From contig NC_017459.1 of the NCBI RefSeq assembly GCF_000237865.1, forward strand, positions 1,170,001-1,202,000: 32,000 nt of DNA, read 5' to 3'. Source of the stretch: Haloquadratum walsbyi C23 (lineage in GTDB: Archaea > Halobacteriota > Halobacteria > Halobacteriales > Haloferacaceae). A model generated the notes under the pieces. That model did no database searches. It was not told the DNA's origin and saw only the letters and a list, made by a program, of their open reading frames with translations. The position numbers and the translations under genes were made by a program. Position 1 is the stretch's first letter, and each line of letters begins with the position of its first letter. Positions 1,267 through 30,520 of the stretch are shown piece by piece.

Positions 1267-1372
1267 TTGACATCCTCTCGCGCCTGAAGACGCGGGCACT
1301 CTCCTTTCTATTTATAGTTGGGACATCTGAATCTTCAGGAGAAACCAGATTGAGTCCATGTATCCCATAGAT
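1267..1372 (-). repeat. copy A of dispersed structured repeat family (terminus GAGAGGATGTCAA on the minus strand)
   Basis: Minus-strand reading is CTATGGG...GAGTGCCCGCGTCTTCAGGCGCGAGAGGATGTCAA. The TCAA end lies 32 nt downstream of the USP stop codon, between convergent genes. Confidence 0.55.
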
Positions 1373-1487
1373 TATCTGACTATCAACAATCTGGGTATTT
1401 TCCGTCCGTCTCTAACCCAGATGAATAATACAGTGGATATGAGTTACCGTAGTATTATTTCACTCGAAGACGTTATAATCACAGAGA

Positions 1488-2170: not shown

Positions 2171-2171
2171 G

Positions 2172-2185
2172 TGTGATTAATCACA
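2172..2185. promoter_or_regulatory. perfect 14-bp palindrome TGTGATTAATCACA abutting the regulator start codon (candidate operator)
   Basis: Read directly. It sits immediately 5' of the GTG start at 2168-2170, and CACGTG (2168-2173) overlaps it. Confidence 0.4.
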
Positions 2186-2700
2186 GACCTGCAGTCACTC
2201 TTATTGATACGTGTAGCTCAATGAATTTTATTCCGGGACTAGGAGAGTGAGTACGAGTGTAGGCTCAGAAAGGAACGGTACTCAGAATACCAGCGACTGA
2301 GAGGAACCAAACAGTTTCAACTCGGGTTTCACCGTCTTGTTCTGGTCTATACTTACTGCAGCATTCAATTCAGTGTTCTGATACCTCTTCTTCTGAAGAC
2401 CGGATACGCCGCCTCCCAATATCATCATTACTGTGTTTTCTTTCTTTCATGACGCTCGATAGCTGAGTTAATCATACTCACGATATGACGAATCCTGTCA
2501 TCAAATGAGCAGTGAGCGCACCGATATCAGATCTTATAACTCATCGCTCATCTGTAAAAGCGAATACCCGTAGTTTCGACCCTCTCTGATCACAGGTGTC
2601 AGTTCGTTACTCTGCCGACTCTACACCCAATCTTCCGCAGGTACTGACTGCTACAGATGAGCGTAACTCGTTATATACGCTACTGATAAGCACAACTGAT

Positions 2701-4065
2701 CTAATCGCTGCTGGCGACTTCACCGTCCTGCTGTCCCTCCAGAATGACGCCAAGTGCCCCTTCGCGGTCGGTTCGACTTCGACCGTATATCAGATACCAC
2801 CCGATACCACCGACAATAATACCAGCCGCACCGAGGATTGGAAACATTCCCATCTGCGTGAGCAATGCCAATCCCCCGAAAAATCCAGCAAACTGGACGT
2901 ATGGATACCCTGGTGATTTAAATGACGGTTGATAAGAATCGACCTCACTTGTACGGAATACAATAAGAGCGACATTCACAAATGAAAATACAAGAATTTG
3001 GAATGCACTCGCTAACTTCGCTAACTCAACGACTGGCACAAATGCAATAAGTGCTAAGAGCAGACCGCCAGTGAGTAAAATTGAGTTTCTGGGAGTGCTG
3101 AATCGTTTACTCACAGTAGCAAGTTGAGTAGGTGCCAGTGAGTCTCGACTCATCGCTAATGGGAACCGCGAAGACGCTAGTACCCCGGCATTCGCCATAC
3201 TGGTTAATGCAAGTATTGCGATTAACGCGATTGCGACGACACCAAACCCGCCGAGCAGTTGATCTGCACCGTCTGCCATTGGGGTTAGTGATGGTCCACC
3301 ATTTGGACCACTTGTTGTCAAGACATTCGGGTCATTCAATCCGACCACAACTGCAACCACAAGCGTATAGAGCAGCATCATCACTCCCATTGAAATTAGA
3401 ATTCCAAGTGGTAAATTCCGATCAGGGTTTTCAATCTCCTCAGCGACACTTGCAATCTTTGTTACCCCAGCATAAGAGACAAACACAAACGCCGCTGCAG
3501 TCACGATTCCGTCTGCCCCCTTTGCAGTGAATCCCTGGAACCGCGTTGGCTCAATGATAAATCCTGAGTTGAGAACATATGCGGCGAGCGCAAACACAAC
3601 AGCAGTGACAATAATCGATTGAGCTTTGCCACTTTGTTCTGTGCCGACAATATTGAGTACAACAATGAGTGCTGCGAGTCCGAGCGCGACAATCTTGATT
3701 AATCCATCCGATATTGGGATAAGCAATAACAGGTATGCGCCGAGTCCAACTAATGCGAAGGAACTCTTAAACACCAGCGAGAACCACGCGCCAATTCCAG
3801 CGATTGTTCCAGCCAATGGTCCCATCGCGCGGTCGATATAAAGATATGTCCCACCAGACTCAGGCATAGCAGTCGCCATTTCTGCCTTTGAGAGTGCGGC
3901 CGGTAAGACGACCAACCCCGCTAGAATATAGGCGAGAATGACTGCTGGTCCGGCTTTTTTTAATCCCAATGCAGGAAGCACAAAAATACCACTGCCAATC
4001 ATTGCGCCCATGCTAATCGTGACTGTCGCATACAGACCAAGATCTCGTTCGAGATCGTTTTTCAT
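2701..4065 (-). CDS. APC-superfamily amino acid permease
   Basis: 454-aa polytopic ORF with about 12 TM segments. The N-terminal segment TISMGAMIGSGIFVLP and GGTYLYIDRA are typical of APC/cationic amino acid transporters. Confidence 0.88.
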   Translation of the reverse strand: MKNDLERDLGLYATVTISMGAMIGSGIFVLPALGLKKAGPAVILAYILAGLVVLPAALSKAEMATAMPESGGTYLYIDRAMGPLAGTIAGIGAWFSLVFKSSFALVGLGAYLLLLIPISDGLIKIVALGLAALIVVLNIVGTEQSGKAQSIIVTAVVFALAAYVLNSGFIIEPTRFQGFTAKGADGIVTAAAFVFVSYAGVTKIASVAEEIENPDRNLPLGILISMGVMMLLYTLVVAVVVGLNDPNVLTTSGPNGGPSLTPMADGADQLLGGFGVVAIALIAILALTSMANAGVLASSRFPLAMSRDSLAPTQLATVSKRFSTPRNSILLTGGLLLALIAFVPVVELAKLASAFQILVFSFVNVALIVFRTSEVDSYQPSFKSPGYPYVQFAGFFGGLALLTQMGMFPILGAAGIIVGGIGWYLIYGRSRTDREGALGVILEGQQDGEVASSD

Positions 4066-4165
4066 CTGATAATCATCTCCAAAAGAGTGAGGTGTGAGTT
4101 ATGCCAGTTGTGCAATATGTTTTTATTCTTATGCCCCTGTTTATTTTTGAGTGTCGCCACATGAA

Positions 4166-4187
4166 AATAATGCGTTAATAATGCGTT
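4166..4187 (+). repeat. perfect tandem duplication of the 11-mer AATAATGCGTT
   Basis: Read directly at 4166-4176 and 4177-4187, about 100 nt upstream of the permease start. Confidence 0.9.
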
Positions 4188-4548
4188 CATAATTGCTGTA
4201 TGTACTATCAAAATTTTAAAAATGAATTTATAATACCCGTCAGATCAAGATCAAAAATTTGCGATAGGGATGACAGTATTGAACCAATCTGTGCTGACAG
4301 AAAACGACTGAATATCGCAATGTGTGTCATTATTGATTCAAGATACTTAATACGAGGTATTTGTTCAATCGTATCGAATCCGTTGAAGTCATTAATGTCG
4401 CTGTGTACATATGTTTGTTAGTATTGATTGGATGAGCTTCATATCTAATTTATTTTGCTCAGTCTGTGGTAGACTTCATTCAGTACCAGTCGTATAGTTC
4501 ATACATCCGATATAACAGTCATCCTGAAATTCTGTCCTCGTATACAGA

Positions 4549-5259
4549 TCATCCAATCAAGAGCTTTTGTACATCATCAAGAATACTCGCCTCCGCAGCA
4601 ACAAGATATCGGCGGCTCCGTTCAAGAGTCGTTTCAGGACGAGCAACCTCGGTCCCCTCAGCATCTGAAATTACATGACATCCATCAGGAAGTAATATCT
4701 CATTTAATTGCTTACCAGCTGCGGGGGACTGTGGGTGCACCCGAATATTGAGGATGTTCAAGTCTCCTGTAACCTGTTCTAATGTTCTGACATCATCCTC
4801 TTGAATCCGATTGACTGTTGCTTTTGATCCGGTCCGCTCAGGATATACAATCTCGTCAATGAATTCATTTTCTATATCCGATCGCTCAAGACTATTAACT
4901 CGCGCAATGGTTCGAAGATTACTCGTCAGGTGTTGCATCTCCGCACAAATCGCAAAGTTAGTTGTTGCATCACCGGTCAGAGCGGCAAGGACATCTGCCT
5001 GTGATGGTTCTGCTTGTTGCAGAATCTGTGGATCTTCTGCATCACCCTCAATCACGACACCTGTCCAGTCATCAATTACCTCTTTAATGCTCTCAGAATG
5101 ACGCTCGATAAGATAGACCTCATGACCATAATCAGTCAACAGCTGAGCTGTTCGACGTCCAATCCGTCCTGCACCGGCAATAATAATATGTTGTTCTGGT
5201 GTCCGATTCCTTTGCGTGTCTGAGTTGGGACCATTCACGCATCCAAGCGCTGAATTCAC
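4549..5259 (-). CDS. trkA: TrkA-type RCK protein (TrkA-N plus TrkA-C), stand-alone
   Basis: 236 aa. It has the Rossmann motif IIIAGAGRIGRRTAQLL and a C-terminal TrkA-C-like segment (LNILNIRVHPQSPAAGKQLNEILLP). It is a paralog of the ORF at 11611-12264. Confidence 0.88.
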   Translation of the reverse strand: MNSALGCVNGPNSDTQRNRTPEQHIIIAGAGRIGRRTAQLLTDYGHEVYLIERHSESIKEVIDDWTGVVIEGDAEDPQILQQAEPSQADVLAALTGDATTNFAICAEMQHLTSNLRTIARVNSLERSDIENEFIDEIVYPERTGSKATVNRIQEDDVRTLEQVTGDLNILNIRVHPQSPAAGKQLNEILLPDGCHVISDAEGTEVARPETTLERSRRYLVAAEASILDDVQKLLIG

Positions 5260-5702
5260 TAGAAAAAGTTACCTTTTGTCGATTTAAAATATAATTGGGT
5301 ATTTGCGGGCTCCGCAAAAATGGTTGCTTCCCAAAGCGCAACACACCAGGTCTTCATGCGCTTTCACGACTGGCTTCAGAATGTTGAGACAGAATATAAT
5401 ACTGATGTGATAGTAATCACGGACATTTACGTTTATGATATATAAAAGATCTAACTTTTATACACACTTCGATAATACCATATAATTATAAACATGAATT
5501 GCACTTTGACTCATTACTTTCGACAGGTTATTAGGATAGAAAAGGTAATATTTGTCTGAATTTATCTCTATCTCACACTCACATGACGTATTATCGCTGA
5601 CCACAGACGAACCACTCGACAACGTTTTAATTCCATGAAAGAGGTTACCATCGGAGAATGATAAAGAAGTTTTCACCCGATTTTAGTGATTATTAGGCGT
5701 AT

Positions 5703-7346
5703 ATGACACGATTCGGATGGAGGCAGCGTTTTATATTATCGTTATTTGGCGTTGCACTGCTCGTATTGATTTATTCACTTCTATATCAATGGGCAATATT
5801 CAGATTTGAAGGGGTCAACATAACAATATTTCAGTCGTTACAGACCGTTATTGAGATATTCACAACAGCCGGATTCGGAGGAGATACTCAGTATTGGAAC
5901 ACAGCTCCAATGAACCTTCTCGTGATTGGAATGAATCTTACCGGTGTTCTCCTCGTCTTCTTAGCACTCCCAGTGTTTGCTATTCCACTCTTTCAGCAGG
6001 CACTTGAAAATAACCCGCAGCAGTCGACCACGATTAGCGATCATATTATTATTTGCTCATACAATTCGCGTGAGAATGTCCTTCGATCAGAACTTGAGGC
6101 TGCAGATGTCCCATATGTCATTATCGATACCGACGCTGAAAAAGTCTTAGAGCTGAATAATAATGGAGTCGAAGCAATTTGTGGTGATCCCGAACAAGAG
6201 CAGGCACTCAAAGCAGCGAATATATCTGCGGCTCAAGCGCTCGTAACTGACGTTTCTGATACAGAAAATATCCCAGTGATTCTGACTGCAAAGGAACTAG
6301 AAGAAGATCTGAGGATCATCAGTGTTGCTGAAAATGAGCAAGATGCGGAGTATCACCGGTATGCAGGTGCTGACCGGGTTATTCGACCTCGACAGGCTCT
6401 TGGAAATGCGCTTGCTAGTAGGGCGACGCTTCCAATTACACAAAAGCTTCTCCAAACGGTCGAATTGAGTGACGAGTTTAATATTTCAGAACTTCGCATC
6501 GAAGACGACAGCGAACTTGCAGGCCAAACGCTTGCAGAATTAAAGCTTCAAGAGCGAATGGGTGTCACGATCATCGGGGTATGGTCCAATGGAAAGTTTA
6601 TCTCTGCACCAGGACCTGATATCCGAATAGATGAGAATATGTTTTTATTGGTCGCTGGAAGTTATGAGGCGCTTACAGAGGTAACCACTCAAACGGTTTC
6701 TCCAAAGCTCTCTGCGAATGATCAGGTTATCGTCGCGGGATACGGCGTTGTTGGTCAATCAACTGTTGAGACATTAGAGGAAAATGGCGTATCGCCTACC
6801 GTGATAGATATGAATGATGATGATAGAGTAGACGTGACTGGCGATATCACGAATAGGGAGACATTTGCCAAAGCTGGCATTGAGAACACTCGATTTGTTA
6901 TCTTAGCAGTTGACGATGATTCGACTACGATGTATGCGACGGTCGCTATCAAAGAGTCTGCGCCTGACACTGAGATGATTGCACGAGCGAATAGTATCGA
7001 AAACACAGCAAAACTGTATCGAGCCGGTGCTCGGTATGTTCTTTCGCTATCGACAGTCACCGGACGAATGCTTTCTTCGGTTCTCTTAGAAGATGAAGAG
7101 GTATTGACGCTTGAAACACAGTTCGAGATTGTCCGGACAACTGCACCTGAACTTGCTGGTCAGACGCTTCGTGGGGCAGCTATCCGCGACAGAACCGGGG
7201 CCACAGTTGTCGCAATTGAACGAGACGGTGAGTTACTGACGAACCCTGAGCCTGATTTGCGAATGAAAGAGAATGATCAATTCATCGTCACGGGGAGTAG
7301 TAATGTGATAAATAACTTTACTGAGACATTTAGATACTCAAGATGA
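5703..7346 (+). CDS. 2-TM potassium-channel-like protein with two RCK (TrkA-N/TrkA-C) modules
   Basis: 547 aa. The layout is TM1, pore helix, filter-like TTAGFGGD, TM2, then two RCK modules. The second module has an intact VAGYGVVGQ motif. The first has a degenerate IIICSYNSRE in place of GxGxxG. Confidence 0.85.
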   Translation: MTRFGWRQRFILSLFGVALLVLIYSLLYQWAIFRFEGVNITIFQSLQTVIEIFTTAGFGGDTQYWNTAPMNLLVIGMNLTGVLLVFLALPVFAIPLFQQALENNPQQSTTISDHIIICSYNSRENVLRSELEAADVPYVIIDTDAEKVLELNNNGVEAICGDPEQEQALKAANISAAQALVTDVSDTENIPVILTAKELEEDLRIISVAENEQDAEYHRYAGADRVIRPRQALGNALASRATLPITQKLLQTVELSDEFNISELRIEDDSELAGQTLAELKLQERMGVTIIGVWSNGKFISAPGPDIRIDENMFLLVAGSYEALTEVTTQTVSPKLSANDQVIVAGYGVVGQSTVETLEENGVSPTVIDMNDDDRVDVTGDITNRETFAKAGIENTRFVILAVDDDSTTMYATVAIKESAPDTEMIARANSIENTAKLYRAGARYVLSLSTVTGRMLSSVLLEDEEVLTLETQFEIVRTTAPELAGQTLRGAAIRDRTGATVVAIERDGELLTNPEPDLRMKENDQFIVTGSSNVINNFTETFRYSR

Positions 7347-7583
7347 CTTCACTTTGATCAGTCTCAGTGAGCGTGAATCGGTTTTTATTCTTCTTCTTGC
7401 ATCGACATGAGTCACGTTGATTGACCCTTAATCTTGTAAGCCTCGGCGGGAGACACAGATGCTCAGGTGATTATCAGTTATATATTTGATATGAAAATAA
7501 TCTGTGCACAACTGAGTTATTCTGGGGGTATAGCTCCAACTATTTCATGACTCAGTGAGAGAAATCAACCGTATTCTGATATA

Positions 7584-7793
7584 TCACTCATCAGTCGTAT
7601 CAATACCGAGTGCTTCATTCAGTCCACAAAAACAGGTTACTGTATTAAATCCAAGTCCGATCGCCCCAGCAGCAGCCAGTATTGCAAATTTATACTTCCT
7701 CTGTTGAAGCGTATTCACTGCAGTGAGAGTCAGAAGAATGGTAAACACTCCACGCATGAGACGGTCGCGACCGCCGACGTTCGTTTCAACCAT
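7584..7793 (-). CDS. DUF2892 (YgaP-like) small membrane protein
   Basis: 69 aa. It has N-terminal GGRDRLMR, two TM segments and a C-terminal CFCGLNEALGI segment characteristic of this family. Confidence 0.65.
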   Translation of the reverse strand: MVETNVGGRDRLMRGVFTILLTLTAVNTLQQRKYKFAILAAAGAIGLGFNTVTCFCGLNEALGIDTTDE

Positions 7794-7956
7794 AGAAGAA
7801 CAATGAGACGCATCCGATTTATATTTTATCTCACAGTAACAGGGAGTGAAACAGGTATGTGAATTCCCTCGAAGAGTGTGCAGTACTTAAACGGCAAATA
7901 CACGTCAGCTGTGTAAGTAGTGCATATCTCTTCTCGTCGACGATATTGGTGGCTCG

Positions 7957-9303
7957 CTATTCTGAAATGGCTGTTGTGCTAGCGTCACCAAGTTGCGCCC
8001 GAAGATGTGACCCGATCAATAAGATCGTCGCAAATAATATCACTGCTGCGAAAAGCAAGACACTGCCTGAAAGGAGAGTGAGACCACTGGTAATCTGACT
8101 AATCACGAAGTTCCCAGCAAGTATACTTGCAACACTGAATACGGCAATGCCGCCGATATTAATAGCGACACTTGGAGGGTCACCAGTTGTTTGTGAGTCA
8201 TTTAATAATACTAATACGAGCGCAAGTGCAAATGGTGTCCCAACTGTCCCGACTGCCAGCACAAGCACTAATTGTCCTAAGAACGCACCGGGAATGAACA
8301 CGCCAGCGCCACTGACAAGTGCTGTCCCAGCCAGCAGGACTCGATACCGTGTATCTTCTACGTTTGTCTCCCAAGTGAGCTTATCAGCGATGACGTACAC
8401 CGGTACAAGAGTATTGCCTCCAAGTGTCGATACAGCCGCTCCAAGAAGCCCGATTAAAAAGACTCGTTGAGCGAACGAGCCAGCAATTGGTTCGAGCGCC
8501 TGTGCTGCACCAATCGCTTGTAATCCTTGTGTATCGATATTCCCAAACAATGCCCCAGCGGCGACAAGAAATGTGGCGATACTAAAAACTCCAAACGCAA
8601 CGAGCATAGAGACACTAATATCAAATCGAGCGATATCAGCATCAGATTGTGTCCATCCACGAGCTTTCACCGTGTAAGTCTGCATTGTAATGATTGTCAC
8701 GTGAACCGCGCCTCCAACGATGCCGGCAGCGGCAATTGCGCCACCAATCGGGACTGTCGGAAAGAGTCCACTGACCGCGGCTCCTGAATCGATGGGAACG
8801 ACAAACAGTGACGCAATGAATGCAAGCACAACTCCTGTGACGACTACCTTCGCCCCAATTTCAGCAATTCGATATCCACCACCAGCGAGTCCAACCGTGA
8901 GAAAGACAGCCCATATAACACCCCAAGACTCAGCACCAAATGGCATTAATAATCCTGAAACACTGGCAACAGTTTTCATAATGACTAATTGTGCAAAACC
9001 GGCAACAAGGACAACATCCGCGACCAACAACCATGCCCATTTTGTCCCCAGTCGTCGTTCAACGGTTTTGATAAGACCCTCATTTGTCTCCAATGCGAGT
9101 TTTGTTGCGAGATACTGCGCCAACGCACCAAAAATAGCCGAGATGACCACAACCCAGAGGAGTGCGTACCCAAAGTTTGCACCACCACTCAGTAAACTTG
9201 CCATAGAAGCCGGTCCTGCCGCAATCGCTCCTGCTAGCCACGTCGGACCTAACTGTGAAATCTTCTCGCTCAGTGAATGCTGTTTGCCTGTTGATTGACT
9301 CAT
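7957..9303 (-). CDS. NRAMP-fold (SLC11-related) transporter, non-canonical
   Basis: 448 aa. The N-terminus LGPTWLAGAIAAGPASMASLLSGGANFGYALLWVVV aligns with MntH ([35 protein letters not shown]). However, DPGN is replaced by GPAS and the TM6 MPH motif by HVT. Confidence 0.75.
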   Translation of the reverse strand: MSQSTGKQHSLSEKISQLGPTWLAGAIAAGPASMASLLSGGANFGYALLWVVVISAIFGALAQYLATKLALETNEGLIKTVERRLGTKWAWLLVADVVLVAGFAQLVIMKTVASVSGLLMPFGAESWGVIWAVFLTVGLAGGGYRIAEIGAKVVVTGVVLAFIASLFVVPIDSGAAVSGLFPTVPIGGAIAAAGIVGGAVHVTIITMQTYTVKARGWTQSDADIARFDISVSMLVAFGVFSIATFLVAAGALFGNIDTQGLQAIGAAQALEPIAGSFAQRVFLIGLLGAAVSTLGGNTLVPVYVIADKLTWETNVEDTRYRVLLAGTALVSGAGVFIPGAFLGQLVLVLAVGTVGTPFALALVLVLLNDSQTTGDPPSVAINIGGIAVFSVASILAGNFVISQITSGLTLLSGSVLLFAAVILFATILLIGSHLRAQLGDASTTAISE

Positions 9304-9528
9304 GTATGTTACCGTTATTATGTGGTGGTTAAAACATTATTAATCAGTGTTACCACAGTAGAAATCTCTTTTATCCGGTGATTCTGTATCAGTGCAATCT
9401 TACTCAGCACATCTGATTTGTATAGACGCATGTGAAAAATTGAGCATTCGAGCCTCCACATCAAGTAAAAAACAACATATAACGACAATTAGAAGTAGTA
9501 ATGATATTGATATTATATTGATATATCG

Positions 9529-11343
9529 ATGCCTGAGGTAACTGTTGGGACGGTACTCGTTTTTCTGATTATCATTGTTGCGCTCGTCTTATTTGTCACT
9601 GAGCCCGTCCCAATTGATGTCACAGCACTTGGCATTATGGTAACGCTCATGATGTTGGGACCATGGACGGGTATCTCCCCACGTGATGGTGTTTCTGGAT
9701 TCGCGAATCCGGCGACAATGACAATTCTCGCAATGATGATTCTAAGCGAGGGTGTCCGGCGCACAGGCGTGATTCAGCGACTAGAAGAGATAGTTACATC
9801 CTACACCGGCGAGAGTAGCCACAAACAACTCGGCGCAACAATCGGTATTGTTGGTCCGCTTTCGGGGATCATTAATAACACAGCAGCCGTTGCAATCTTA
9901 CTCCCGATGGTGAGTGATCTCGCCCATGAGAACGGGACTTCTCCATCGAAGTTGTTACTCCCGCTTTCGTATGCCTCAATGGCTGGCGGAATGTTGACAC
10001 TCATTGGAACATCAACGAACCTGCTCGCCAGCACTATTGCGAGTCGACTGGCGACAGACTACCCATCTCTGCACGCGTTCTCGATGTTTGAATTTACGCA
10101 ACTTGGGTTGCTTGTGTTTCTCGTCGGGGCGGCATACCTGCTGACTATCGGATATTGGCTTACACCATCGCACGTAACACCACGAAGTGAATTCGAAACA
10201 ACTCACAGAGAGGAGTTCTTGACTGAGATCACCATCGGTAATACATCCCCGCTTGTTGGAATGACAATTCAAGAGGCACTTCAGCAGATTGAGTTTGAGG
10301 GAAATGTTACCCAACTTATTCGTCGAGACGATTATTATCGTGAACCTCGATTGTCAATGATAATACAAAGTGACGATGCTTTTATGATCCGCCTCACCGA
10401 GAATGCGCTGCGCACGCTATATGATGTCGAAGGAATTGAGTTTGTTCCGGAAGTAACACCTCAGGGTGATCTTGACGCACTTGCCCCCGGACAAACGCTC
10501 GTTGAGATTGTTATCACTGCTGGCTCTGATCTGGTCAGCGAAACAATTGAGACATCAGGATTTCAGGATCAATACCAGGCGGGTGTCCTCGCAATTCGCC
10601 GTGGTGGGAAAACCACTCATGAACGCCTTACAGAACACCGGATCCAACCTGGAGATATGCTTCTTGTCGAGTCTGATTCGAATACTATTGACCGCCTTGC
10701 AGACGATCCAAATGTGGTCGTGGCTGGTGAAATTGACCTCCAACAGTTTCGCTCATCGAAGCTCCCGCTTGCGGTTGGCGTTGTACTCTCGGTCGTTGCA
10801 CTGGCAGCAGTTGGCATTCTCCCGATCATGGTTGCTGCGCTCGGCGGTGTTATTATAATGTTTGTTACTGATATTATCAAGCCAGCAGAAGCATACGATG
10901 CCGTGCAATGGGATGTCATCTTTCTTTTATCAGGCGTCATTCCGCTCGGTAGAGCGCTATCTGAGACAGGTGGTGCAGATCTGCTTGGAACACTTATCGT
11001 CTCAACAGCTGATTTTTTACCCATAATCGCGGTTCTTGGGCTATTCTATTTACTAACTGCTGCGATGACAAATCTCATTAGTAATCAAGCTAGCGTCGTA
11101 TTATTCATTCCTATCGCCGCCGACACCGCCGCCCGATTAAACGCAAACGCATTCGCGTTCATTCTTGCAGTCACATTCGCTGCGAGCACAGCTTTCATGT
11201 CACCGGTCGGATATCAGACCAACCTCTTTGTCTATGGTCCTGGCGGCTATGAGTTCAGTGACTACGCTCGCGTTGGTGGACCGCTGCAAGTAATCTTAGC
11301 TATCGTGACGACCCTTGGAATCGCGATGTTTTGGGGGCTATGA
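9529..11343 (+). CDS. SLC13/DASS-family permease with two central TrkA-C domains
   Basis: 604 aa. Two polytopic halves are separated by two TrkA-C-like repeats (..TEITIGNTSPLVGMTIQEA.. and ..EIVITAGSDLVSETIETSGF..). Confidence 0.88.
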   Translation: MPEVTVGTVLVFLIIIVALVLFVTEPVPIDVTALGIMVTLMMLGPWTGISPRDGVSGFANPATMTILAMMILSEGVRRTGVIQRLEEIVTSYTGESSHKQLGATIGIVGPLSGIINNTAAVAILLPMVSDLAHENGTSPSKLLLPLSYASMAGGMLTLIGTSTNLLASTIASRLATDYPSLHAFSMFEFTQLGLLVFLVGAAYLLTIGYWLTPSHVTPRSEFETTHREEFLTEITIGNTSPLVGMTIQEALQQIEFEGNVTQLIRRDDYYREPRLSMIIQSDDAFMIRLTENALRTLYDVEGIEFVPEVTPQGDLDALAPGQTLVEIVITAGSDLVSETIETSGFQDQYQAGVLAIRRGGKTTHERLTEHRIQPGDMLLVESDSNTIDRLADDPNVVVAGEIDLQQFRSSKLPLAVGVVLSVVALAAVGILPIMVAALGGVIIMFVTDIIKPAEAYDAVQWDVIFLLSGVIPLGRALSETGGADLLGTLIVSTADFLPIIAVLGLFYLLTAAMTNLISNQASVVLFIPIAADTAARLNANAFAFILAVTFAASTAFMSPVGYQTNLFVYGPGGYEFSDYARVGGPLQVILAIVTTLGIAMFWGL

Positions 11344-11610
11344 ACTACTCTCCTCGCATCCTCAGGACTTCCTATCATTCGGTGGGGACAGACCCAGAAC
11401 TTGCTTCTTTCAGGACATGGTCTGTCAGGGTCGCGCATATTGCATATGGATTTAATTACCGACAGAATATAGATAAATCGTATACACTCGGAGAGAATAC
11501 TTCCGTTGCTAATCGGTAAAAAAAGAGCGTATCACATCTCAATTACCACAGTGTCAACTCGTGATCAATCGTGACGAGTGACTTCAAATCTTAGAATTAA
11601 ACATAAACCA

Positions 11611-12264
11611 ATGTCAAAAACAAAACGTATCATCATCGCCGGCGGCGGGCGTATCGGACTACGAACTGCACAGGAACTCGCCGACCGTGGATATGAAATT
11701 GTATTGATCGAAAAAGAGGAGGCTCGCTCAGAAGAGGTAGCAGATGAATATGTTGCGATGGTCTTACAGGGGGATGCAACAGCGCCGTCAATTCTCGAAC
11801 AGGCAGATCTTGAGCGGGCTGATGCCATTGCTGCGTTGACCGACGAACCTGGAAGCAATCTTGCAATCTGTATGACAGCAAAGCAGATCGCCCCGAATAT
11901 TCGGACACTCGCTCGAACCGGGACAGGGACTGAGGATGAGTACGACGAGATTGCTGACGCAACGATTCTCCCGCAAAAGCTCAGTGCGGGCACTGCCGCT
12001 GATATCCTCTCAGGTGATGAGGTGCGAACAATTATTGGGACCCATCATGACCTCGAAATATTAGAAATTAAAGTGGCTGAAGATGCCCCAGTTGCCAGTA
12101 GTGCGCTCGAAGAAATTAGCCTTCCAAAAGGGAGTCTCATTATCTCGGGTCAAAATCGAACACGAATCGCACGCGCCGATACAACATTAGAACCTGGTGA
12201 GTACTATATTGTCGGCGTTGAACCGGATGTACTCGATGAGGTACTGAAGTTGTTCCGTGGCTGA
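11611..12264 (+). CDS. trkA: TrkA-type RCK protein (TrkA-N plus TrkA-C), stand-alone
   Basis: Rossmann motif IIIAGGGRIGLRTAQEL and a TrkA-C end. I prefer the ATG at 11611 over the GTG at 11578 used in the ORF track. The gene lies immediately downstream of the SLC13 permease on the same strand. Confidence 0.88.
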   Translation: MSKTKRIIIAGGGRIGLRTAQELADRGYEIVLIEKEEARSEEVADEYVAMVLQGDATAPSILEQADLERADAIAALTDEPGSNLAICMTAKQIAPNIRTLARTGTGTEDEYDEIADATILPQKLSAGTAADILSGDEVRTIIGTHHDLEILEIKVAEDAPVASSALEEISLPKGSLIISGQNRTRIARADTTLEPGEYYIVGVEPDVLDEVLKLFRG

Positions 12265-12278
12265 GTGAGAACGCTGTT

Positions 12279-12309
12279 ATATCCCTAATGAGGTCACCTG
12301 CAGGGATAT
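12279..12309. terminator. hairpin between convergent trkA and usp genes
   Basis: ATATCCCT (12279-12286) pairs perfectly with AGGGATAT (12302-12309). The loop contains an inner AGGT-c-ACCT stem. Its function is unproven. Confidence 0.3.
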
Positions 12310-12337
12310 TATCTATCTGATATCCGAATCATCCCAC

Positions 12338-12784
12338 TCAGGAAGATCCATCAGCGGACTCAGTTGGCATTGGAACTGTCAAGACCGGCGCATCTGAAAC
12401 CCGGACGACATTCTCGGTGACACTACCAAGGAAATACCGATCCAAACCTGTGCGACCATGTGTCCCCATGACAATAGAGTCAATGTCATTTTCATCGACA
12501 TAGTCAAGAATGACCTGATGGGGTGTTCCTTGCGCCACTAAACCCTCGATTGTGCGCACACTGGCTGCCTCTGCTTGTTGGATTACCTCATCGATTGCAT
12601 TCTTTCCAGTCTCTTCGAGAGCATCAAGGGTTCCGGGAACCGAGGAGCCAGTTGGACCACTTGCCTCAATGACATATATTGTGTGAAGCGCGGCGTCATA
12701 GACCGTCGCAAGATCAATCGCGTGCTCAACGGCGCCTCGCGTTCCCTCAGTTCCGTCCGTTGGAATCAGTATCTTGTCGTACAT
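12338..12784 (-). CDS. universal stress protein (single USP domain)
   Basis: 148 aa. It starts MYDKILIPTDGTEG and carries the ATP-binding motif MGTHGRTGLDRYFLGSVTENVV. Confidence 0.9.
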   Translation of the reverse strand: MYDKILIPTDGTEGTRGAVEHAIDLATVYDAALHTIYVIEASGPTGSSVPGTLDALEETGKNAIDEVIQQAEAASVRTIEGLVAQGTPHQVILDYVDENDIDSIVMGTHGRTGLDRYFLGSVTENVVRVSDAPVLTVPMPTESADGSS

Positions 12785-12927
12785 ATCAACCTTTTATTCA
12801 CGGAGGGAGAAAATTATGCTGTCGGGTGGTGATATCATGACCAGAGTAGCGCTCGTGACATCCCTCTCATAAAGAAGCCCTCAATCAGTAGCAGTATTTA
12901 ATATATCTCCATCCATGGCATGTCCAC

Positions 12928-14277
12928 ATGAGTCAAGACCAAGCAAGTGAAGTGGCTGATCAACTATCAGTCCCGGAGGCAATGATTAAGAAAGCATGTG
13001 ATGATCCAGCGTTACCTGAACTCGGTATTATTGAACAAGTCTGGAATACCGACTCAATTCCATCGTCGGAGACAGCAGAAGCCGCCGCAAAGGCTGTGGA
13101 TTCACTTCCGCTTGAAACTGTTCCTGCCGGTGGTGAAATTGCGCTTGGTGTTGGGAGCCGGGGAATCGCGAATCTTGCATCATTGGTTAGCGGTGTTGTG
13201 ACACATCTACAGGACAGAGGGTATGAGCCATTCATTTTTCCAGCGATGGGGAGCCACGGCGGTGCAACCGATGATGGTCAACGGAAAAAACTCGCCGAAC
13301 TCGACATTACTGAGGCGACCATTGGCTGTGAGATCCGTTCCAGTATGAACGTTGTCGAAGTCGGTCAGACGGCTGATCGTGAAATTCCGGTCGTTGCCGA
13401 TGCAAACGCTGCCAGTGCGGACGCCATCATCCCAATTAATCGAGTCAAACCTCATACTGACTTTGATGGCACAGTCGAGAGTGGGCTGTCAAAAATGCTT
13501 GTGATTGGGATGGGCAAGCAGCGTGGAGCTCAAATCGCACATCAATGGGCTGTTGATTGGTCACTCAGGAATATGATTCCTGAAATCACTGAGCAATTGC
13601 TCGCGAAACTTCCTGTTGTCGGTGGTATTGCTATCGTCGAAGATCAACACGACGATACAATGCTTGTCGAGGGGGTCCCTCCATCCGACTTTCTCGATCG
13701 GGAAGCTGAATTACTTGAAATTGCGTATGATGTGATGCCAAAGCTTCCATTCAATGATCTTGATGTCGTCGTTCTCGACAAGCAAGGCAAGGAGATCAGT
13801 GGTCAGGGACTCGATACGAATGTTATTGGACGACGACCCTTTGCAATCAATGAACCCGAGCCTGACCAGCCGGATATCAAACGCATATACGTACGTGGAC
13901 TCACGCAAAAGACCCATGGAAATGCAATGGGGATGGGGTCCGCCGACATTGTTCATGAGAATGTCCCAGCAGATCTCGAGGCAACAACGACACTGATCAA
14001 CGCCCTCACCGCGAGCACAATCCGTGGCGTGAAGCTCCCGCCGGTCGTTGAAACAGACCGTGCGGGAATTATTGCTGCACTCTCAACGATTGGTGTTGTC
14101 GACCCTGATACCGTTCGCATGCTTCGAGCTACCGATACGATGCATCTTCATCGACTCTACGCTTCACCAGCACTGATCGCTGAGGCACGCGATCGTACTG
14201 ACCTTCGGGTAGTTGAGGAAGCATCACCAATTATGTTCGATGATGGTCAATTCACTGCTCCATCCCTCAGACACTGA
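12928..14277 (+). CDS. LarA-like (lactate racemase N-terminal domain / DUF2088-like) protein, putative
   Basis: 449-aa acidic ORF. The segments GVGSRGI, FPAMGSHGG and NRVKPHTDFDGTVESGLSKMLVIGMG line up from memory with LarA SSDHTRP, ATGFHRP and ESHFFAGFSGGRKS. The ORF is certain, but the family call is tentative. Confidence 0.5.
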   Translation: MSQDQASEVADQLSVPEAMIKKACDDPALPELGIIEQVWNTDSIPSSETAEAAAKAVDSLPLETVPAGGEIALGVGSRGIANLASLVSGVVTHLQDRGYEPFIFPAMGSHGGATDDGQRKKLAELDITEATIGCEIRSSMNVVEVGQTADREIPVVADANAASADAIIPINRVKPHTDFDGTVESGLSKMLVIGMGKQRGAQIAHQWAVDWSLRNMIPEITEQLLAKLPVVGGIAIVEDQHDDTMLVEGVPPSDFLDREAELLEIAYDVMPKLPFNDLDVVVLDKQGKEISGQGLDTNVIGRRPFAINEPEPDQPDIKRIYVRGLTQKTHGNAMGMGSADIVHENVPADLEATTTLINALTASTIRGVKLPPVVETDRAGIIAALSTIGVVDPDTVRMLRATDTMHLHRLYASPALIAEARDRTDLRVVEEASPIMFDDGQFTAPSLRH

Positions 14278-14384
14278 TATTTGCCTGAGTGCTTTTTCAC
14301 TGCTCAGATACCACTCAGTGAGCATTATTCATCACTTCGACTGTATCAATTGATTATACGCTCTACCGGAATCACCACACTATC

Positions 14385-14467
14385 TTGACATCCCCCGCCT
14401 GCAAACGGGAGAACCCAACGGTACCGCACCGCTGGATTGGGATATGAAGATTTGTACTCTCTCATAG
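14385..14467 (-). repeat. copy F of dispersed structured repeat family
   Basis: Minus-strand reading is CTATGAGAGAG...GCGGTGCGG...CTCCCGTTTGCAGGCGGGGGATGTCAA. The TCAA end points at the 3' end of the LarA-like gene, 108 nt away. Confidence 0.5.
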
Positions 14468-14880
14468 TGATTAGTTCGAATAGTTTTACCGACGGTGTCG
14501 AATGACGCGGGTTCAGCGGCTCACATCACCGACACGCATAATCACGGCGGTAAAAACTTGCACTTATCACTATCAGTTGTGCCTGCGGTTGGAATCCGCT
14601 GGACAAGTCATGAAGATAGATTCCGGGCTGTTCCAACCAGCCAGTGCTCCTATTCTCAACCAAACTGGACGAAGACTCAGTTATGCGACACCGAATGGAT
14701 AACAATATCAAATCAATACAGAGACCATTCGACATGCTGACGTTGTGTGACTCATCGAACAATCATCAATGGGGGTTTTCTCTATGATCGATAAATAACT
14801 ATCATCACCATCAGGTTGGTAATCGCTCGTTCGAATCAGTATAGTGACAGTTATTATTATAGGCGACCTAGTAAGATTGT

Positions 14881-20134: not shown

Positions 20135-20224
20135 ACGCGTTCGTCAGTCTCAGTTCATATACCGATTGCGATTGTCGGTAATGCCACCTATTCACCTTCT
20201 TCTGACACCTGCTCAATCACCCAA

Positions 20225-20253
20225 TTACGTTACATTACATTACATTACATTGA
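20225..20253 (+). repeat. pentanucleotide microsatellite (TTACA)x4 with imperfect flanking units
   Basis: TTACG TTACA TTACA TTACA TTACA TTGA read directly. It is intergenic. Confidence 0.9.
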
Positions 20254-20382
20254 TAATGGCGTCGTCTGGAATCTGATGAGGACACTCACTCGACAGTGTG
20301 ACATCAATTCAGATGATACGGGAATAAGCGCATGTATACTTTCAGACAGGGCGAAAATCAACAACTAACTACGAGAGAAAAC

Positions 20383-21225
20383 TCACTTCGGGGCAGGCGT
20401 AGAAGTCTGTGATCCAATCGGGGTACCGATAATAGAAATGTCTGCCATCCACTCGTCTACGCCCCAATCAAGTCTGATTGTGACTGTATCGTTCCTTCCA
20501 ATGACTCTTATATTTTGAGTGACATTACGTTCGGAATCAGAATCAAGTGTCGCAGTCACCGTCTGTGAACCAGAGGTAAAGTTTCCGCTGAGACTCGCTC
20601 CAAATGTGCCACGTCCATCGCCGGTGTTCGTCAGTGTGAAGCTGACGGTTACCTCACGTTGTGTTCCCGCACGCAGTTCCCTCGGTGACACCGAAAGTTC
20701 GGATACCTCGAATACCGGAGGAGTATTCAATCGGGTGAGCATAGTCTTTGATAATGACTGTCGCTTTTTTTGATCATAGAGAATGTATCCGGAATCGAAC
20801 GTCTCGGTTTTACTCACAGCAAACGCGATATCTATGGTCTCATTCCGCCAGCGAACAGGTTGAGATTCAGCCAGCGGAACTGACTCGCCATCTATGTTTA
20901 CTCTCAGCTGATTCTGAATCGTGTCTCGTGAGAGCGCTGAGTTCACAGAAAGGGTGAGATACTGTTTGTCCTTTCGCCGATGAACATGTGGATGAACACC
21001 TGCGAGTGCATAGACAATGTAATCTGTAACGGAGAGTGAAACAATGTTTACAGGCTCATTACCATCGCTCGTTTGAGATGTAATTGGCTGTGTTTCGGGA
21101 GAACGAGTTGCTGAATCCGCTGGTGACCCACTATTATCTGAAAGACATCCTGACACTCCTACAGCCATGATGACAGATGTCTTCAGGAATTGACGACGTC
21201 GACATGCATGTTCGTTTGGGGGCAT
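20383..21225 (-). CDS. Tat-secreted lipoprotein with CARDB-like beta-sandwich domain
   Basis: It has a twin-arginine signal plus lipobox (CRRRQFLKTSVIMAVGVSGC), a Ser/Thr/Pro linker, and a C-terminal segment VSPRELRAGTQREVTVSFTLTNTGDGRG. I prefer the start at 21225. The longest ORF reaches 21288. Confidence 0.7.
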   Translation of the reverse strand: MPPNEHACRRRQFLKTSVIMAVGVSGCLSDNSGSPADSATRSPETQPITSQTSDGNEPVNIVSLSVTDYIVYALAGVHPHVHRRKDKQYLTLSVNSALSRDTIQNQLRVNIDGESVPLAESQPVRWRNETIDIAFAVSKTETFDSGYILYDQKKRQSLSKTMLTRLNTPPVFEVSELSVSPRELRAGTQREVTVSFTLTNTGDGRGTFGASLSGNFTSGSQTVTATLDSDSERNVTQNIRVIGRNDTVTIRLDWGVDEWMADISIIGTPIGSQTSTPAPK

Positions 21226-21523
21226 GAGTTGATCTTTCGACACTGAATAATAAGGAATATTAATAGTATATTCTGGTTCGTTTCTCACGATGAAATTGAA
21301 GCCGGGGTCGAATCAAGATCCAACATTCTCGAGATTTCCTCGTCCGTCACTCGAAGAGCACATTTTCTGACATATGAGGGTGTTAAGATATGAGCATTGG
21401 GAATCGACCTGTTATCAGTCGTTGGGACTGTGGGTATCGGTATTCGAAACGGAACGCGCACACGAACGTTCCAGTTCAACTGAGTGTCGCTTCGAATATA
21501 AACATCGATCAGAATGCCACCGA

Positions 21524-21671
21524 CTGTTATGGTCGTGTGGTTTAATTCTCAGATATCAGCTTCGTCCAACGGCTCAAGCTGTGGGCTTTCGCCCCGCTAC
21601 CGCTGTAATCTTGGGTATTGACCCCAATAGCGAGAAGAAATCCCACTCTCTCGGGGATGGGAGGATGTCAA
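21524..21671 (+). repeat. copy E of dispersed structured repeat family (longer variant with three hairpins)
   Basis: Three stems are visible: GGGC-tttc-GCCC (21583-21594), TTGGG..CCCAA (21611-21627) and TCCCA..TGGGA (21641-21661). They are followed by GAGGATGTCAA (21661-21671). The terminal TCA is the rtcB stop codon. The 5' boundary is uncertain. Confidence 0.5.
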
Positions 21672-23171: not shown

Positions 23172-23365
23172 GGTTTTCGTATTATCTCCGTTGGGTTCTA
23201 GTGACCTACATTTATTTGTGAGCGTGGGTCGTGGTAATCTCTGACCACTGCCACTGTATCACGATATCGACAATGACTCATTCAGACGCTCCCAGACAAC
23301 AGTCTCATACTTGATGTTACCCAATTCACTCTGGTGAGTCTGTGATACTGGATATCAGCATATAT

Positions 23366-23449
23366 CTATGAGGATTTATTATAATACTAATATTTGGGTG
23401 CGGAAAGTCGAGGTGAAAGCCTCGCGTTTCAGCGCCGAGAGGATATCAA
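23366..23449 (+). repeat. copy B of dispersed structured repeat family
   Basis: CTATGAGGATTTATT...GGGTGCGGAAAGTCGAGGTGAAAGCCTCGCGTTTCAGCGCCGAGAGGATATCAA. The terminal TCA (23446-23448) is the stop codon of the minus-strand gene 23446-24414. Confidence 0.6.
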
Positions 23450-24414
23450 GCTGGCAATGTGTACGTATCTACGGTTTGGTCGTTGATGCTATATCGAATC
23501 TCTAAATCGCCGTTTCTGATTGCCTGCAGTTGAGCACTCGATAGATCACTCACTGCAATAATCTCCCACGAGATTTCAGACTCATCGTCGGCTGATACCA
23601 TCACATCACGATCTTCGGTCGCAACTACCTCGCCATCGATTACTAACTCGGCGGTCACCGTGTTGTCAACATCGTTATCTGTTGGGTTTGTGATTTTCGC
23701 ATCTGCATAGAGTGTGCCCTGCATGGCTGAAGCAGAGCCATCGACCTCGAGTTGTGGGTCATTGTTGATAAGATCCGGTATGACTAAGCCTCCTGTGGCG
23801 ACCAACGCAATTACAACAATTCCAGCAGCCACATATCTTATCGGCAGCGTCATACCGCCCGCACTCGGCGTCTGTTTCCCTCCAATATATGTTCCCCCAA
23901 GACCAGTCAGTCCGGTCGGGAGTGCCACCGTGATGATTGGAATAAGATACTCCCCAATCGGCAAACCCCGAGATGAGTCGCCTTCCATCGTTGTTTGTGT
24001 GGCAGTATCAGCGACTGCACTTCCTCCACCACCCTCAATCATTGCCACACTCATTGCGAGGATGACAACGATAATCATAGCAAAATATCCAGCAGTCGAA
24101 CCGAGGAAGCTCACAAGATATGATGTAGTTGTCGCTCCATTTTCAGACCCAACCCGAAGTCCAGCGATTAGTCCGATTACAGGTCCAAGTAAAAAAACAA
24201 TAGTAAGTACAACAAGAGTGAGGATCCCACCCAGGATTGCACTTCCTGATCCTAACTGAGTGATTGTTATCCCAGCAGTAGCACCAATTCCAATCCCGGC
24301 GAGTATGAAGATCCCAATCACTTGAGCAAGCATGCTAACTGAAATGCCTGAGTTTACTTCGCTCGTCTCCGTTGGAACCTCGGTCGTGCTTTCTGGTGTA
24401 TTCCCGGCTGACAT
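23446..24414 (-). CDS. polytopic membrane protein with C-terminal extracellular beta-rich domain
   Basis: 322 aa. It has about 6 Gly/Ile-rich TM segments followed by an acidic beta-rich C-terminal domain (LEVDGSASAMQGTLYADAKITNPTDND...). I recognise no family. Confidence 0.75.
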   Translation of the reverse strand: MSAGNTPESTTEVPTETSEVNSGISVSMLAQVIGIFILAGIGIGATAGITITQLGSGSAILGGILTLVVLTIVFLLGPVIGLIAGLRVGSENGATTTSYLVSFLGSTAGYFAMIIVVILAMSVAMIEGGGGSAVADTATQTTMEGDSSRGLPIGEYLIPIITVALPTGLTGLGGTYIGGKQTPSAGGMTLPIRYVAAGIVVIALVATGGLVIPDLINNDPQLEVDGSASAMQGTLYADAKITNPTDNDVDNTVTAELVIDGEVVATEDRDVMVSADDESEISWEIIAVSDLSSAQLQAIRNGDLEIRYSINDQTVDTYTLPA

Positions 24415-24904: not shown

Positions 24905-24977
24905 ATATGAGAATTTATTCTGTCCCAGTATAAGATGCAAGGCTAAAACCTCGCTCTTCAGGTCAGAGAGGATGTCA
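24905..24977 (+). repeat. copy C of dispersed structured repeat family
   Basis: ATATGAGAATTTATT...AGATGCAAGGCTAAAACCTCGCTCTTCAGGTCAGAGAGGATGTCA. Its end lies 9 nt from the stop codon of the minus-strand SDR gene. Confidence 0.55.
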
Positions 24978-24986
24978 GCGAATCCA

Positions 24987-28243: not shown

Positions 28244-29098
28244 ATGGAAGAGTATGAACTCTCTAATGGCGTCATTCACAGAGGAGACTGTCTTGATGGA
28301 TTGAGAGAACTTGCTGAAGACGCTATTACGCTTGGATTTACATCGCCTCCATATTTTAATGCTGTCAACTATGAGGAACATGTCGAGAAGGTGCATGGAA
28401 ACACAGATCACTGGGAACGTGAGGAGATGTCATATGATGATTATCAGGATTTCCTTATCAAACGTTTTGAGGAAGTATTTCGTGTCACAAGACCTGGCGG
28501 ACACACAATCGTAAATATCTCGCCTGTTCATTGGGAGGATGAGAGGGTAGCACTACCATTTCACCTTGTTGGGTGGATGGAGGATATTGGATGGACATTC
28601 AAAGAAGATATTATTTGGGAGAAACCTGTTGCGAAGGACCGACGATCTGGCGTCCTTCTGCAAAATCCATATCCAGGATATTATTATCCATCTGTAGTAG
28701 CTGAGTATGTCCTTGTGTTTCAAAAAGAGGCTGATGATGAGAATAAAAATAATATCTACTGGAACAGAACAGAAGAAGAAAAAACGAAGAATGAAATAAG
28801 CCTTGATGACTATCAAGGCGAGAAATCAAAAAATGTCTGGAAAATCCGTCAGGTAGCTCCCGGGGAGAACGAGCATCCAGCGCCATTTCCGCGAGAGCTT
28901 GCAGAACGAGTTATACAGTTTTACTCATATCAAGACGATACGGTCATGGACATCTTTGCAGGGAGTGGTCAGACGCTCCTTGCTGCACAGGATCTGGATC
29001 GAGAGTTTATTGGGTTTGAGACGCAGCACGAATACGTTGAGTACGCTAAGGACAGAGTGATAGATGAAAGTTCACAGATGACATTAGAGGATATCTAG
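28244..29098 (+). CDS. beta-class N4-cytosine/N6-adenine DNA methyltransferase
   Basis: 284 aa. Motif IV TSPPYFN is near the N-terminus (SPPY at 28343-28354) and AdoMet motif I FAGSGQT is near the C-terminus. That order is the beta-class permutation. Confidence 0.88.
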   Translation: MEEYELSNGVIHRGDCLDGLRELAEDAITLGFTSPPYFNAVNYEEHVEKVHGNTDHWEREEMSYDDYQDFLIKRFEEVFRVTRPGGHTIVNISPVHWEDERVALPFHLVGWMEDIGWTFKEDIIWEKPVAKDRRSGVLLQNPYPGYYYPSVVAEYVLVFQKEADDENKNNIYWNRTEEEKTKNEISLDDYQGEKSKNVWKIRQVAPGENEHPAPFPRELAERVIQFYSYQDDTVMDIFAGSGQTLLAAQDLDREFIGFETQHEYVEYAKDRVIDESSQMTLEDI

Positions 29099-30398: not shown

Positions 30399-30469
30399 TA
30401 TATATTAACTCGTCCTGTTTGCATAACTCCTGGCTCATCGCTTAATGTTTTGGTATATCAATTATGGAA

Positions 30470-30520
30470 GTGCAAGGAGAAAGCCCAGTGCTTTCCCGTG
30501 CTTTCGCGCGGAGATGAATC
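30470..30520 (+). repeat. degraded copy D of dispersed repeat family
   Basis: GTGCAAGGAGAAAGCCCAGTGCTTTCCCGTGCTTTCGCGCGGAGATGAATC shares the RTGCAAGG box and hairpin region with copies B and C. The terminal GGATGTCAA has diverged. Confidence 0.3.

Follow-up and report, generated by a model that had tools for sequence, protein, structure and literature searches.

Repeats of the window and their identity

The window analysed here is a stretch of 32,000 nucleotides from Haloquadratum walsbyi C23 (contig NC_017459.1, positions 1,170,001 to 1,202,000); all coordinates below count from its first letter. Exact matches of encoded proteins to CCC40030.1, CCC40022.1 and CCC40033.1 agree with this source. 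Its 20 large open reading frames (ORFs) are of housekeeping type, with transporters, TrkA, Usp, RtcB, AhpC, SDR and ABC transporter genes, and no transposase is found among them. Five short repeats are dispersed in this setting, at 1267-1348(-) (copy c1), 14385-14466(-) (c2), 21594-21671(+) (c3), 23370-23449(+) (c4) and 24909-24978(+) (c5). In each, a short hairpin whose loop is T-rich/CAG precedes GAG(A/G)GGAT(G/A)TCA. We consider it highly probable that the repeats of the window are decayed termini of IS608-like elements of the IS200/IS605 family that carry tnpB only ('IS1341-type'). Its representatives in Haloquadratum are ISHwa23/24 and the transposase-free PATE (palindrome-associated transposable element) derivative HqIRS54, and HqIRS81/82 are probably transposase-free PATE derivatives of it too. 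A sequence-only reading of the window had proposed orphan right ends of IS200/IS605 (IS1341/TnpB) elements or of their derivatives, and this proposal stands, since full-length elements have this terminus downstream of tnpB (see below).

The terminal 12-mer GAGRGGATRTCA, with at most one mismatch, has six matches in the window against 0.85 expected. None of 100 shuffled sequences reaches six. Four of the six matches are c1, c3, c4 and c5, and c2 has two mismatches. The other two, at 12000-12011(-) in the TrkA-like gene and at 28421-28432(+) in a 284-aa ORF, are coding, come with neither hairpin nor profile match and look like chance.

Three profile models, none containing window sequence, were used. 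R2 (85 positions) was built from 39 haloarchaeal TnpB right ends and R3 from 15 left ends, and R1 (39 nt) derives from right ends of all taxa. The top five window matches of R2 are exactly the five right-end copies, namely c2 (41.0 bits, E 2e-10), c4 (22.3 bits), c1 (20.1 bits, E 6e-4), c3 (19.0 bits) and c5 (13.2 bits, E 0.07), the best other match scoring 10 bits. The five copies picked out by eye are thus recovered by a model that contains none of them. R1 places c1 at the top (23.4 bits), together with c3 (19.3 bits) and c5 (15.4 bits). The left-end model R3 matches a sixth feature, c6 (39.9 bits), a left end at 21553-21608(-) (39.6 bits) and c4 (25.4 bits). As had been read, TCAA is present in four of the five right-end copies (c1-c4), the terminus of c5 being TCAG.

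When the five window copies are aligned, 80.7% of the stem cells are paired; the figure is 68% for shuffles and 38-59% for slid controls. Two-sided stem changes are seen in nine cells against 4.4 expected. It must be noted that this alignment was fitted to the model and is therefore biased towards structure.

Right ends of TnpB-bearing relatives

One genome per species was scanned with the pattern GGGAATC-N5-9-TTCAG-N6-9-GGATGTCAA, in which the stem positions are unconstrained. At least 120 loci were found, in haloarchaea, Actinobacteria, Cyanobacteria, Nitrospirota, Deltaproteobacteria, Micrarchaeota and others. Among the matches listed, many have an ORF of 390-455 aa that stops 35-70 nt before TCAA. 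All eight of these upstream ORFs that were tested are TnpB, with OrfB_IS605 and the Cas12f1-like TNB domain in each. In several haloarchaeal loci a left end precedes tnpB and reads TTAC, then GGAGAATCGAGGAGAAAG, a hairpin and GGGGATGAATCC. The full-length haloarchaeal elements accordingly run from TTAC and the left end through tnpB to the TCAA of the right end, over about 1.48-1.50 kb; left and right ends flank tnpB in L015, L038 and L041. At three loci the same two ends lie about 372 nt apart without tnpB, which is the size of a PATE. The right end of the window copies is therefore shared with TnpB-bearing IS200/IS605 elements, as the sequence-only reading had anticipated for full-length elements of this kind.

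In 87 distinct relatives, the right-end hairpin consists of nine pairs (the stem, then a C-G pair closing the TTCA loop), with 91.5% of the cells paired; with slid partners the figure is 51-71%. Double changes number 89 against 22 in shuffled alignments, and none of 500 shuffles is as high. The covariation of the terminal hairpin in these independent relatives is strong. The guides of the relatives abut the stem, as GAAAG on the left and GGGAAT on the right, where the stem is followed by the 9-nt tail GGATGTCAA.

The link between this right end and the guide RNA of TnpB has been textbook knowledge since 2021. Canonical haloarchaeal right ends match Rfam RF02656 (sot0042) with 94-165 bits, and since this model stops 9 nt before the TCAA end, the right-end hairpin is the last stem-loop of the omega-RNA. 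The earlier suggestion that hairpin and terminal TCAA make up the 3' part of an omega-RNA is consistent with this overlap in the canonical relatives. The sotRNAs are now equated with TnpB omega-RNAs (PMC12558985). In the relatives, this RNA overlaps the tnpB 3' end and stops at the right end of the transposon; in the window, c2 alone follows a tnpB remnant, from which it is split by a 110-nt insertion.

TnpB elements of haloarchaea, Streptomyces, Frankia, Micromonospora, cyanobacteria, Nitrospirota, Deltaproteobacteria, Endozoicomonas and Micrarchaeota have the module GGGAAT-hairpin (CTTCAG loop)-GGAGGATGTCAA in nearly invariant form. Judged from the aligned ends, the conservation across domains of what would be both an omega-RNA end and a TnpA recognition end appears striking.

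Anatomy of the individual copies

The best-preserved copy, c2 (14385-14463(-)), is of the ISHwa24/HqIRS54 type, runs from ATCCCAATCCAGCGGTGCGGTACCGT to GGGGGATGTCAA and is near-identical to the published 3' ends of HqIRS54 and ISHwa24. Upstream of it, at 14574-14699(-), tblastn and translation reveal a tnpB pseudogene remnant of 42 codons that encodes a TnpB C-terminus (...ENRSTGWLEQPGIYLHDLSSGFQPQAQLIVI) and matches residues 382-424 of haloarchaeal TnpB with 46% identity (E 1.3e-6). The statement that the window has neither a tnpA nor a tnpB ORF is accordingly correct as regards a tnpB ORF, but it missed this pseudogene. Between the remnant and c2 lies an inverted-repeat element of 110 nt (14464-14573(-)), whose ends are ATAGTGATAAGT and ACTAATCACTAT. 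It has 12-nt terminal inverted repeats and an inner 11-nt inverted pair, TTTTACCGACG and CGGCGGTAAAA. By its size and its choice of target, it is probably a short mobile repeat (SMR) of the HqIRS42/43/55 class. When the element is excised by eye, the canonical sequence of a tnpB 3' end and its right end is restored; c2 is the right end of the upstream tnpB remnant.

Copy c3 is a right-end remnant of 63 nt (21609-21671(+)) that ends in AGAAATCCCACTCTCTCGGGGATGGGAGGATGTCAA. It is abutted by a left end of ISNph18 type in the opposite orientation (21553-21608(-); TTAC, then AGCGGTAGCGGGGCGAAAG, a hairpin and GGACGAAGC; R3 E 1e-9), which is nested in the copy-3 element and had escaped the sequence-only reading. 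An ISNph18-like element is thus inserted, in opposite orientation, into the 63-nt right end. Of the copy previously delimited at about 21524-21671, only the part from 21609 onwards is right end, the segment 21553-21608 being the minus-strand left end. The body of this minus-strand element (21416-21532) shows 69% similarity over 129 nt to positions 11420-11548 of L001, a contig of a divergent lineage. There, this sequence occupies the place that the tnpB remnant and c2 have in C23. From their similarity, the two elements may belong to the same PATE family.

Copy c4 (23398-23449(+)) is a fusion of a left and a right end, in which a left-end 5' part, GGAAAGTCGAGGTGAAAG, is followed by one hairpin and by the right-end tail GAGAGGATATCAA. 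It scores on both models, with an E value of 1e-5 for R3, and is a 'terminal-only' PATE form. A weak, decayed right end, c4', lies in tandem upstream, approximately at 23300-23380(+), and was traced by alignment with the contigs L003, L001 and L002. Its tail reads CTATGAGGATGTCAA in all three contigs and is mutated to CTATGAGGATTTATT in C23; the stretch homologous to c4' in L001 and L002 scores 13.6 bits with R2.

The c5 unit of about 49 nt (24929-24978(+)) is of the same fused type as c4, with AAGATGCAAGGCTAAAACC, a hairpin and GAGAGGATGTCAG. Its core of 46 nt is missing from L001, where the site reads ..TGTTAT-TAAATCC. Copy c1 (1267-1348(-)) is a decayed right end with a TCCCAAC box, a CGCG/CGCG hairpin with the loop TCTTCAGG, and the tail GAGAGGATGTCAA; the sequence before its hairpin, GGAGAGTGCC, is closer in look to the left-end type. 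Both c5 and c1 have left-end-like sequence before the hairpin as does c4, but more weakly, and left and right ends are combined within the same copy only in these three.

Feature c6 (30462-30520(+)) had been taken for a degraded sixth copy at 30470-30520, an assignment that has to be abandoned. It is a left end, in which TTAT is followed by GGAAGTGCAAGGAGAAAG, a hairpin and GAGATGAATC; it matches R3 (E 9e-10) and has no match to the right-end model R2. Twenty of its first 21 nt (GGAAGTGCAAGGAGAAAGCCC) are those of the left end of the full-length element in L015. The left guide AAAG is intact in c6, in the left end at 21553-21608(-) and in c4. The window search with R2 and R3 gave no matching right ends for c6 and the 21553-21608(-) left end.

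Two boxes had been described as shared by the copies. RTGCRRG is genuine and occurs in two contexts, as GTGCGAGG in left ends and as GGTGCGGTG in right ends. CTATGRG is not homologous between copies. Its ten window matches against 6.1 expected do not amount to enrichment, and it has three origins: c2 has it where the 110-nt insertion (...CACTAT) meets the right end (GAGAGAG...), the box of c4 opens the tail of the tandem right end c4', and that of c5 is flanking DNA, present also where the c5 core is absent. It was therefore rejected as a common 5' boundary, left end or module of the element. R2 aligns CTATGRG to tnpB codons E-Q (CAGG), by forced global alignment. An SMR-like insertion was considered as the source of the box in the other copies; no inverted terminal repeats were found upstream of c1, c4 or c5.

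An insertion footprint at the end of rtcB

The chromosome of strain HBSQ001 (L129) and the HBSQ001-like contigs L133 and L134 are 98.4-98.7% identical to the window from 21672 on. This homology begins one base after the TCAA of c3, so that it breaks exactly behind TCAA, and on the other side it resumes only at 20161. The empty site reads GCTGTATTAT joined to TTTGCTTTG, that is, TTAT before TTTGCTTTG, compared with GAGGATGTCAA joined to the same TTTGCTTTG (GTCAA before it) in C23. This comparison indicates that the c3 element sits 3' of TTAT, as IS608-type elements do. The assignment to an IS200/IS605-type end is thus upheld by use of the IS608 cleavage and guide code (see below) and by the boundary of the empty-site allele exactly after TCAA.

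The end of rtcB reads ...AAA TAA in HBSQ001 and ...AAT TGA in C23, which changes the last residue from K to N. The C23 stop (21668-21670) is the reverse complement of TCA in the terminal TCAA of c3. Since the insertion took place at a TTAT that overlaps the TAA stop, the right end of c3 now provides the TGA of rtcB. Likewise, the stop (23446-23448) of the DUF973 gene at 23446-24414(-) is the reverse complement of the TCA of c4. Both c4 and c5 are common to the two sequenced strains, C23 and HBSQ001, so that no empty allele was obtained from the comparison at c4. Of the two left ends, c6 is flanked by TTAT and that at 21553-21608(-) by TTAC.

The block specific to C23 extends from 20162 to 21671 (1,510 nt), in place of which HBSQ001 has 234 unrelated nt. 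Bounded on the right by the TCAA of c3, it carries IS605-type debris and a 301-aa ORF (20383-21288(-)). The possibility that this ORF is a degenerate TnpB was rejected, as it belongs to no Pfam or NCBIfam family and has no TnpB match by tblastn. At about 20225-20250, TTACG followed by four TTACA on the plus strand gives five consecutive TTAC targets within the block.

Strain variation around c1, c2 and c4

In the metagenomic contig L003, which is 98.5-99.5% identical to the window, position 14464 is joined directly to 1353 (L003:13340-13370). The missing 13,110 nt (1354-14463), between c2 and c1, form an island that codes for transporters, TrkA, Usp and Nramp and that the HBSQ001-like contigs retain. 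One breakpoint of this apparent deletion coincides exactly with the right end of the 110-nt element, and the other lies 87 nt from the TCAA of c1. An origin by simple recombination between shared repeats was rejected, because the junction, CACTAT joined to CAATCTGG, has at most 1 nt of microhomology.

The divergent lineage represented by L001 (2395-2491) and L002 (801-897) has 78-89% identity to the window. Its homology ends about 3 nt before the end of c4 and gives way to lineage-specific DNA with a better-preserved right end, GGAATCCCACGACTGAAGTCGTGGGAGGAACTCAA; up to three right ends thus stand in tandem. In this lineage, a called ORF continues across c4 on the antisense strand. When c4 of the window is set against that of L001, G>A and C>T changes are seen that make stem pairs weaker, with no compensation.

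Relation to known systems

The element class, IS605-type ends and PATEs, is already known and is catalogued for the C23 genome at the level of element families. The catalogue of Dyall-Smith et al. 2011 (PMC3119063) comprises 29 IS605-type families and six PATE families. The sizes given are 370-381 bp for HqIRS54 and 51-60 bp for HqIRS81/82; 'terminal-only' forms of 52 bp, derived from ISHwa23 and HqIRS46, are also described. In Table S9 of that study, HqIRS54, HqIRS56, ISHwa24, ISHwa21 and ISNph18 end in ...GGATGTCAA, and the loop before the terminus is CTTCAG, or TGAAC in HqIRS56 and ISHwa21. The left end of ISHwa24, ISNph18 and HqIRS54 is TTAC, then GG..GAGGAGAAAGCC, a hairpin and GGGATGAATC. 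Both IS605-type elements and PATEs are reported to receive insertions of SMRs of about 110 bp in their ends. According to the same source, C23 has 15 tnpA genes, every one a pseudogene; some tnpB genes are intact, and strain-specific insertions occur nonetheless. In HBSQ001, one tnpA is undisrupted.

The published 3' ends of ISHwa24, ISNph18 and HqIRS54 agree with the right-end identity assigned before to the window copies. Besides the lack of a transposase among the 20 ORFs, the window copies have the ends of Table S9 and no inverted terminal repeats, as PATEs do. They share with ISHwa23/24, HqIRS54 and HqIRS81/82 the genome, the terminal sequences, core deletions between palindromes, nesting and SMR insertions. 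In size and build, c4, c5 and c1 are like the terminal-only PATEs. Compared with 'homogeneous' PATEs, however, the window copies are far more diverged, with no BLAST similarity between them, and would fit the 'heterogeneous' or remnant classes.

In IS608 of Helicobacter pylori, the cleavage and guide code is CL TTAC, GL AAAG, CR TCAA and GR GAAT; TTAC lies 19-20 nt 5' of the left hairpin, and TCAA ends 9-10 nt 3' of the foot of the right hairpin. The canonical relatives have the same end architecture and code, with insertion 3' of the tetranucleotide and with neither target duplication nor terminal inverted repeats. In contrast to IS608, the haloarchaeal relatives carry tnpB only (an adjacent tnpA was not searched for). 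The window copies also differ from IS608, in being fragments with eroded guides and in having TTAT rather than TTAC beside c6 and at the empty site of c3.

Proposed origin and alternative explanations

The identification is founded on homology to IS608-like ends, end architecture, covariation in the relatives, a single tnpB remnant and an exact boundary of insertion at one copy, for which the empty site is known. In an intact element of this type, the hairpin would be the subterminal imperfect palindrome that the TnpA Y1 transposase binds on single-stranded DNA. The cleavage tetranucleotide (TCAA on the right, TTAC of the target and left end) would be recognized by pairing with the four bases that precede the hairpin on its 5' side (GAAT on the right, AAAG on the left), and insertion would occur 3' of TTAC or TTAT without target duplication. 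Right-end hairpin and tail would double as the 3' stem-loop of the TnpB guide RNA (omega-RNA/sotRNA), with the guide starting right after TCAA. The 'terminal-only' fusions c4 and c5 would have arisen from a deletion that joined the left palindrome to the similar right one, and c1 is probably another such product.

Several observations weigh against this assignment or limit it. The right-end guide GAAT is intact in no window copy (c3 has AAAT, c2 GTTC, c1 AGTG and c5 AAAA). No matching left ends were found for c1, c2, c3 and c5, so that 'PATE' and 'solo right-end remnant' are hard to tell apart for a given copy. The support for c5 is marginal by E value. Window self-BLAST detects no pairwise similarity between copies, and the folding energies of the hairpins are not better than those of shuffles (z -0.2 to -1.4; +0.55 for c5); in single-sequence folding, even a canonical relative does no better. 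The support therefore comes from profiles and covariation and not from thermodynamics. Rfam gives no relevant match in the window at the gathering threshold or at E<=10, and sot0042 in particular is missed, unlike in the canonical relatives with this right end; its 174-nt model demands more length and better preservation than the copies offer, and only c2 has tnpB sequence upstream. The C23-specific block has no left end at its left boundary (20162) and is therefore not a simple single insertion. Finally, HqIRS codes can be attached to the exact window coordinates only by inference, and none was assigned copy by copy.

We infer that the window copies are now inert relics. Their GAAT guides and stems are eroded, the stems decaying without compensation between lineages. 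A tnpB remnant is missing beside four of the five right-end copies, c2 being the one that keeps it. There is no sot0042 signal, and all tnpA genes of C23 are reported to be pseudogenes.

A very unlikely alternative, in our estimate, is that the orphan right ends have been exapted as functional omega-RNA genes that are loaded in trans onto intact TnpB. The guide, for use in homing, retention or gene regulation, would then be the stretch of 16-20 nt that follows TCAA and is antisense to the 3' end of the adjacent gene. That right-end hairpin and tail form the 3' module of the omega-RNA in the relatives speaks for this proposal, and so do the 3' ends of c3, c4 and c5, which abut convergent gene ends, and the occurrence of strain-specific insertions in a genome with some intact tnpB and only tnpA pseudogenes (PMC3119063). 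However, omega-RNA scaffolds measure about 150-200 nt and include tnpB 3' coding sequence, compared with at most 85 nt of homology in the window, where sot0042 failed. Stems decay uncompensated (c4 versus L001), the tail of c4' has been lost in C23, and c5 has lost TCAA. The adjacency to gene ends is explained by insertion at TTAT or TTAC overlapping stop codons and by selection against coding insertions. The same adjacency invites the view that the elements are kept as hairpins of the 3' untranslated region or terminators, on the opposite strand, for the rtcB, DUF973 and SDR genes: c3 and c4 give the TGA stop, c5 lies 10 nt past the stop, and the stop is immediately followed by a hairpin on the gene strand. 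This we regard as extremely unlikely. A scan for terminator-like structures flags no right-end hairpin on the gene strand, and the oligo-T tracts that archaeal termination needs are absent at these hairpins. Besides, HBSQ001 expresses the same rtcB without the element, the nearest convergent stop is 34 nt away from c1 and 108 nt away from c2, and the conserved 11-nt tail would be left without a role.

Units that are short, intergenic and hairpin-bearing could also belong to another class of structured repeat, such as REP/BIME sequences mobilized via RAYT, CRISPR-like repeats or inverted-repeat MITEs, or could merely resemble one another by chance. The REP/BIME repeats associated with RAYT (TnpA-REP) are likewise linked to Y1 transposases of IS200/IS605 type. 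They are, however, palindromes of 20-40 nt, often in inverted pairs and with a tetranucleotide of their own, whereas the family described here is homologous to TTAC/TCAA insertion sequence ends that lie beside tnpB. The copies have no terminal inverted repeats, target duplications, regular spacing or 5' GTAG as in REP, and the motif count, the ranks and E-values of the profile matches and the exact empty-site boundary rule out chance. The likelihood of any such explanation is close to nil.

Implications

As it stands, the identification of the window repeats as decayed IS608-like termini adds little, IS605-type ends and PATEs having been described for C23 in 2011. The gain lies in the annotation of about ten fragments in the window, of which two left ends, the tnpB pseudogene and a nested short mobile repeat go beyond the sequence-only reading. 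The module GGGAAT-hairpin-GGAGGATGTCAA is a convenient search handle for omega-RNA ends. Copy c3 is a natural example of an IS608-type element that inserted where TTAT and a stop codon overlap, its transposon end now supplying the stop of rtcB.

There is a slim chance that the relics are not fully inert. In that case, the few intact TnpB proteins of Haloquadratum would make use, in trans, of right-end/omega-RNA remnants lacking tnpB and tnpA in cis and would cut empty alleles (TTAT or TTAC plus flank), and repair would copy the remnants into them within a polyploid population that exchanges DNA. If true, this could explain why strain-specific insertions of IS605-type elements and PATEs occur although C23 has only tnpA pseudogenes. 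It could also explain why breakpoints of structural variants fall at or inside these elements, as seen for the block ending at c3, the core of c5, the sequence replaced beside c4 and the apparent 13.1-kb deletion beginning in c2.

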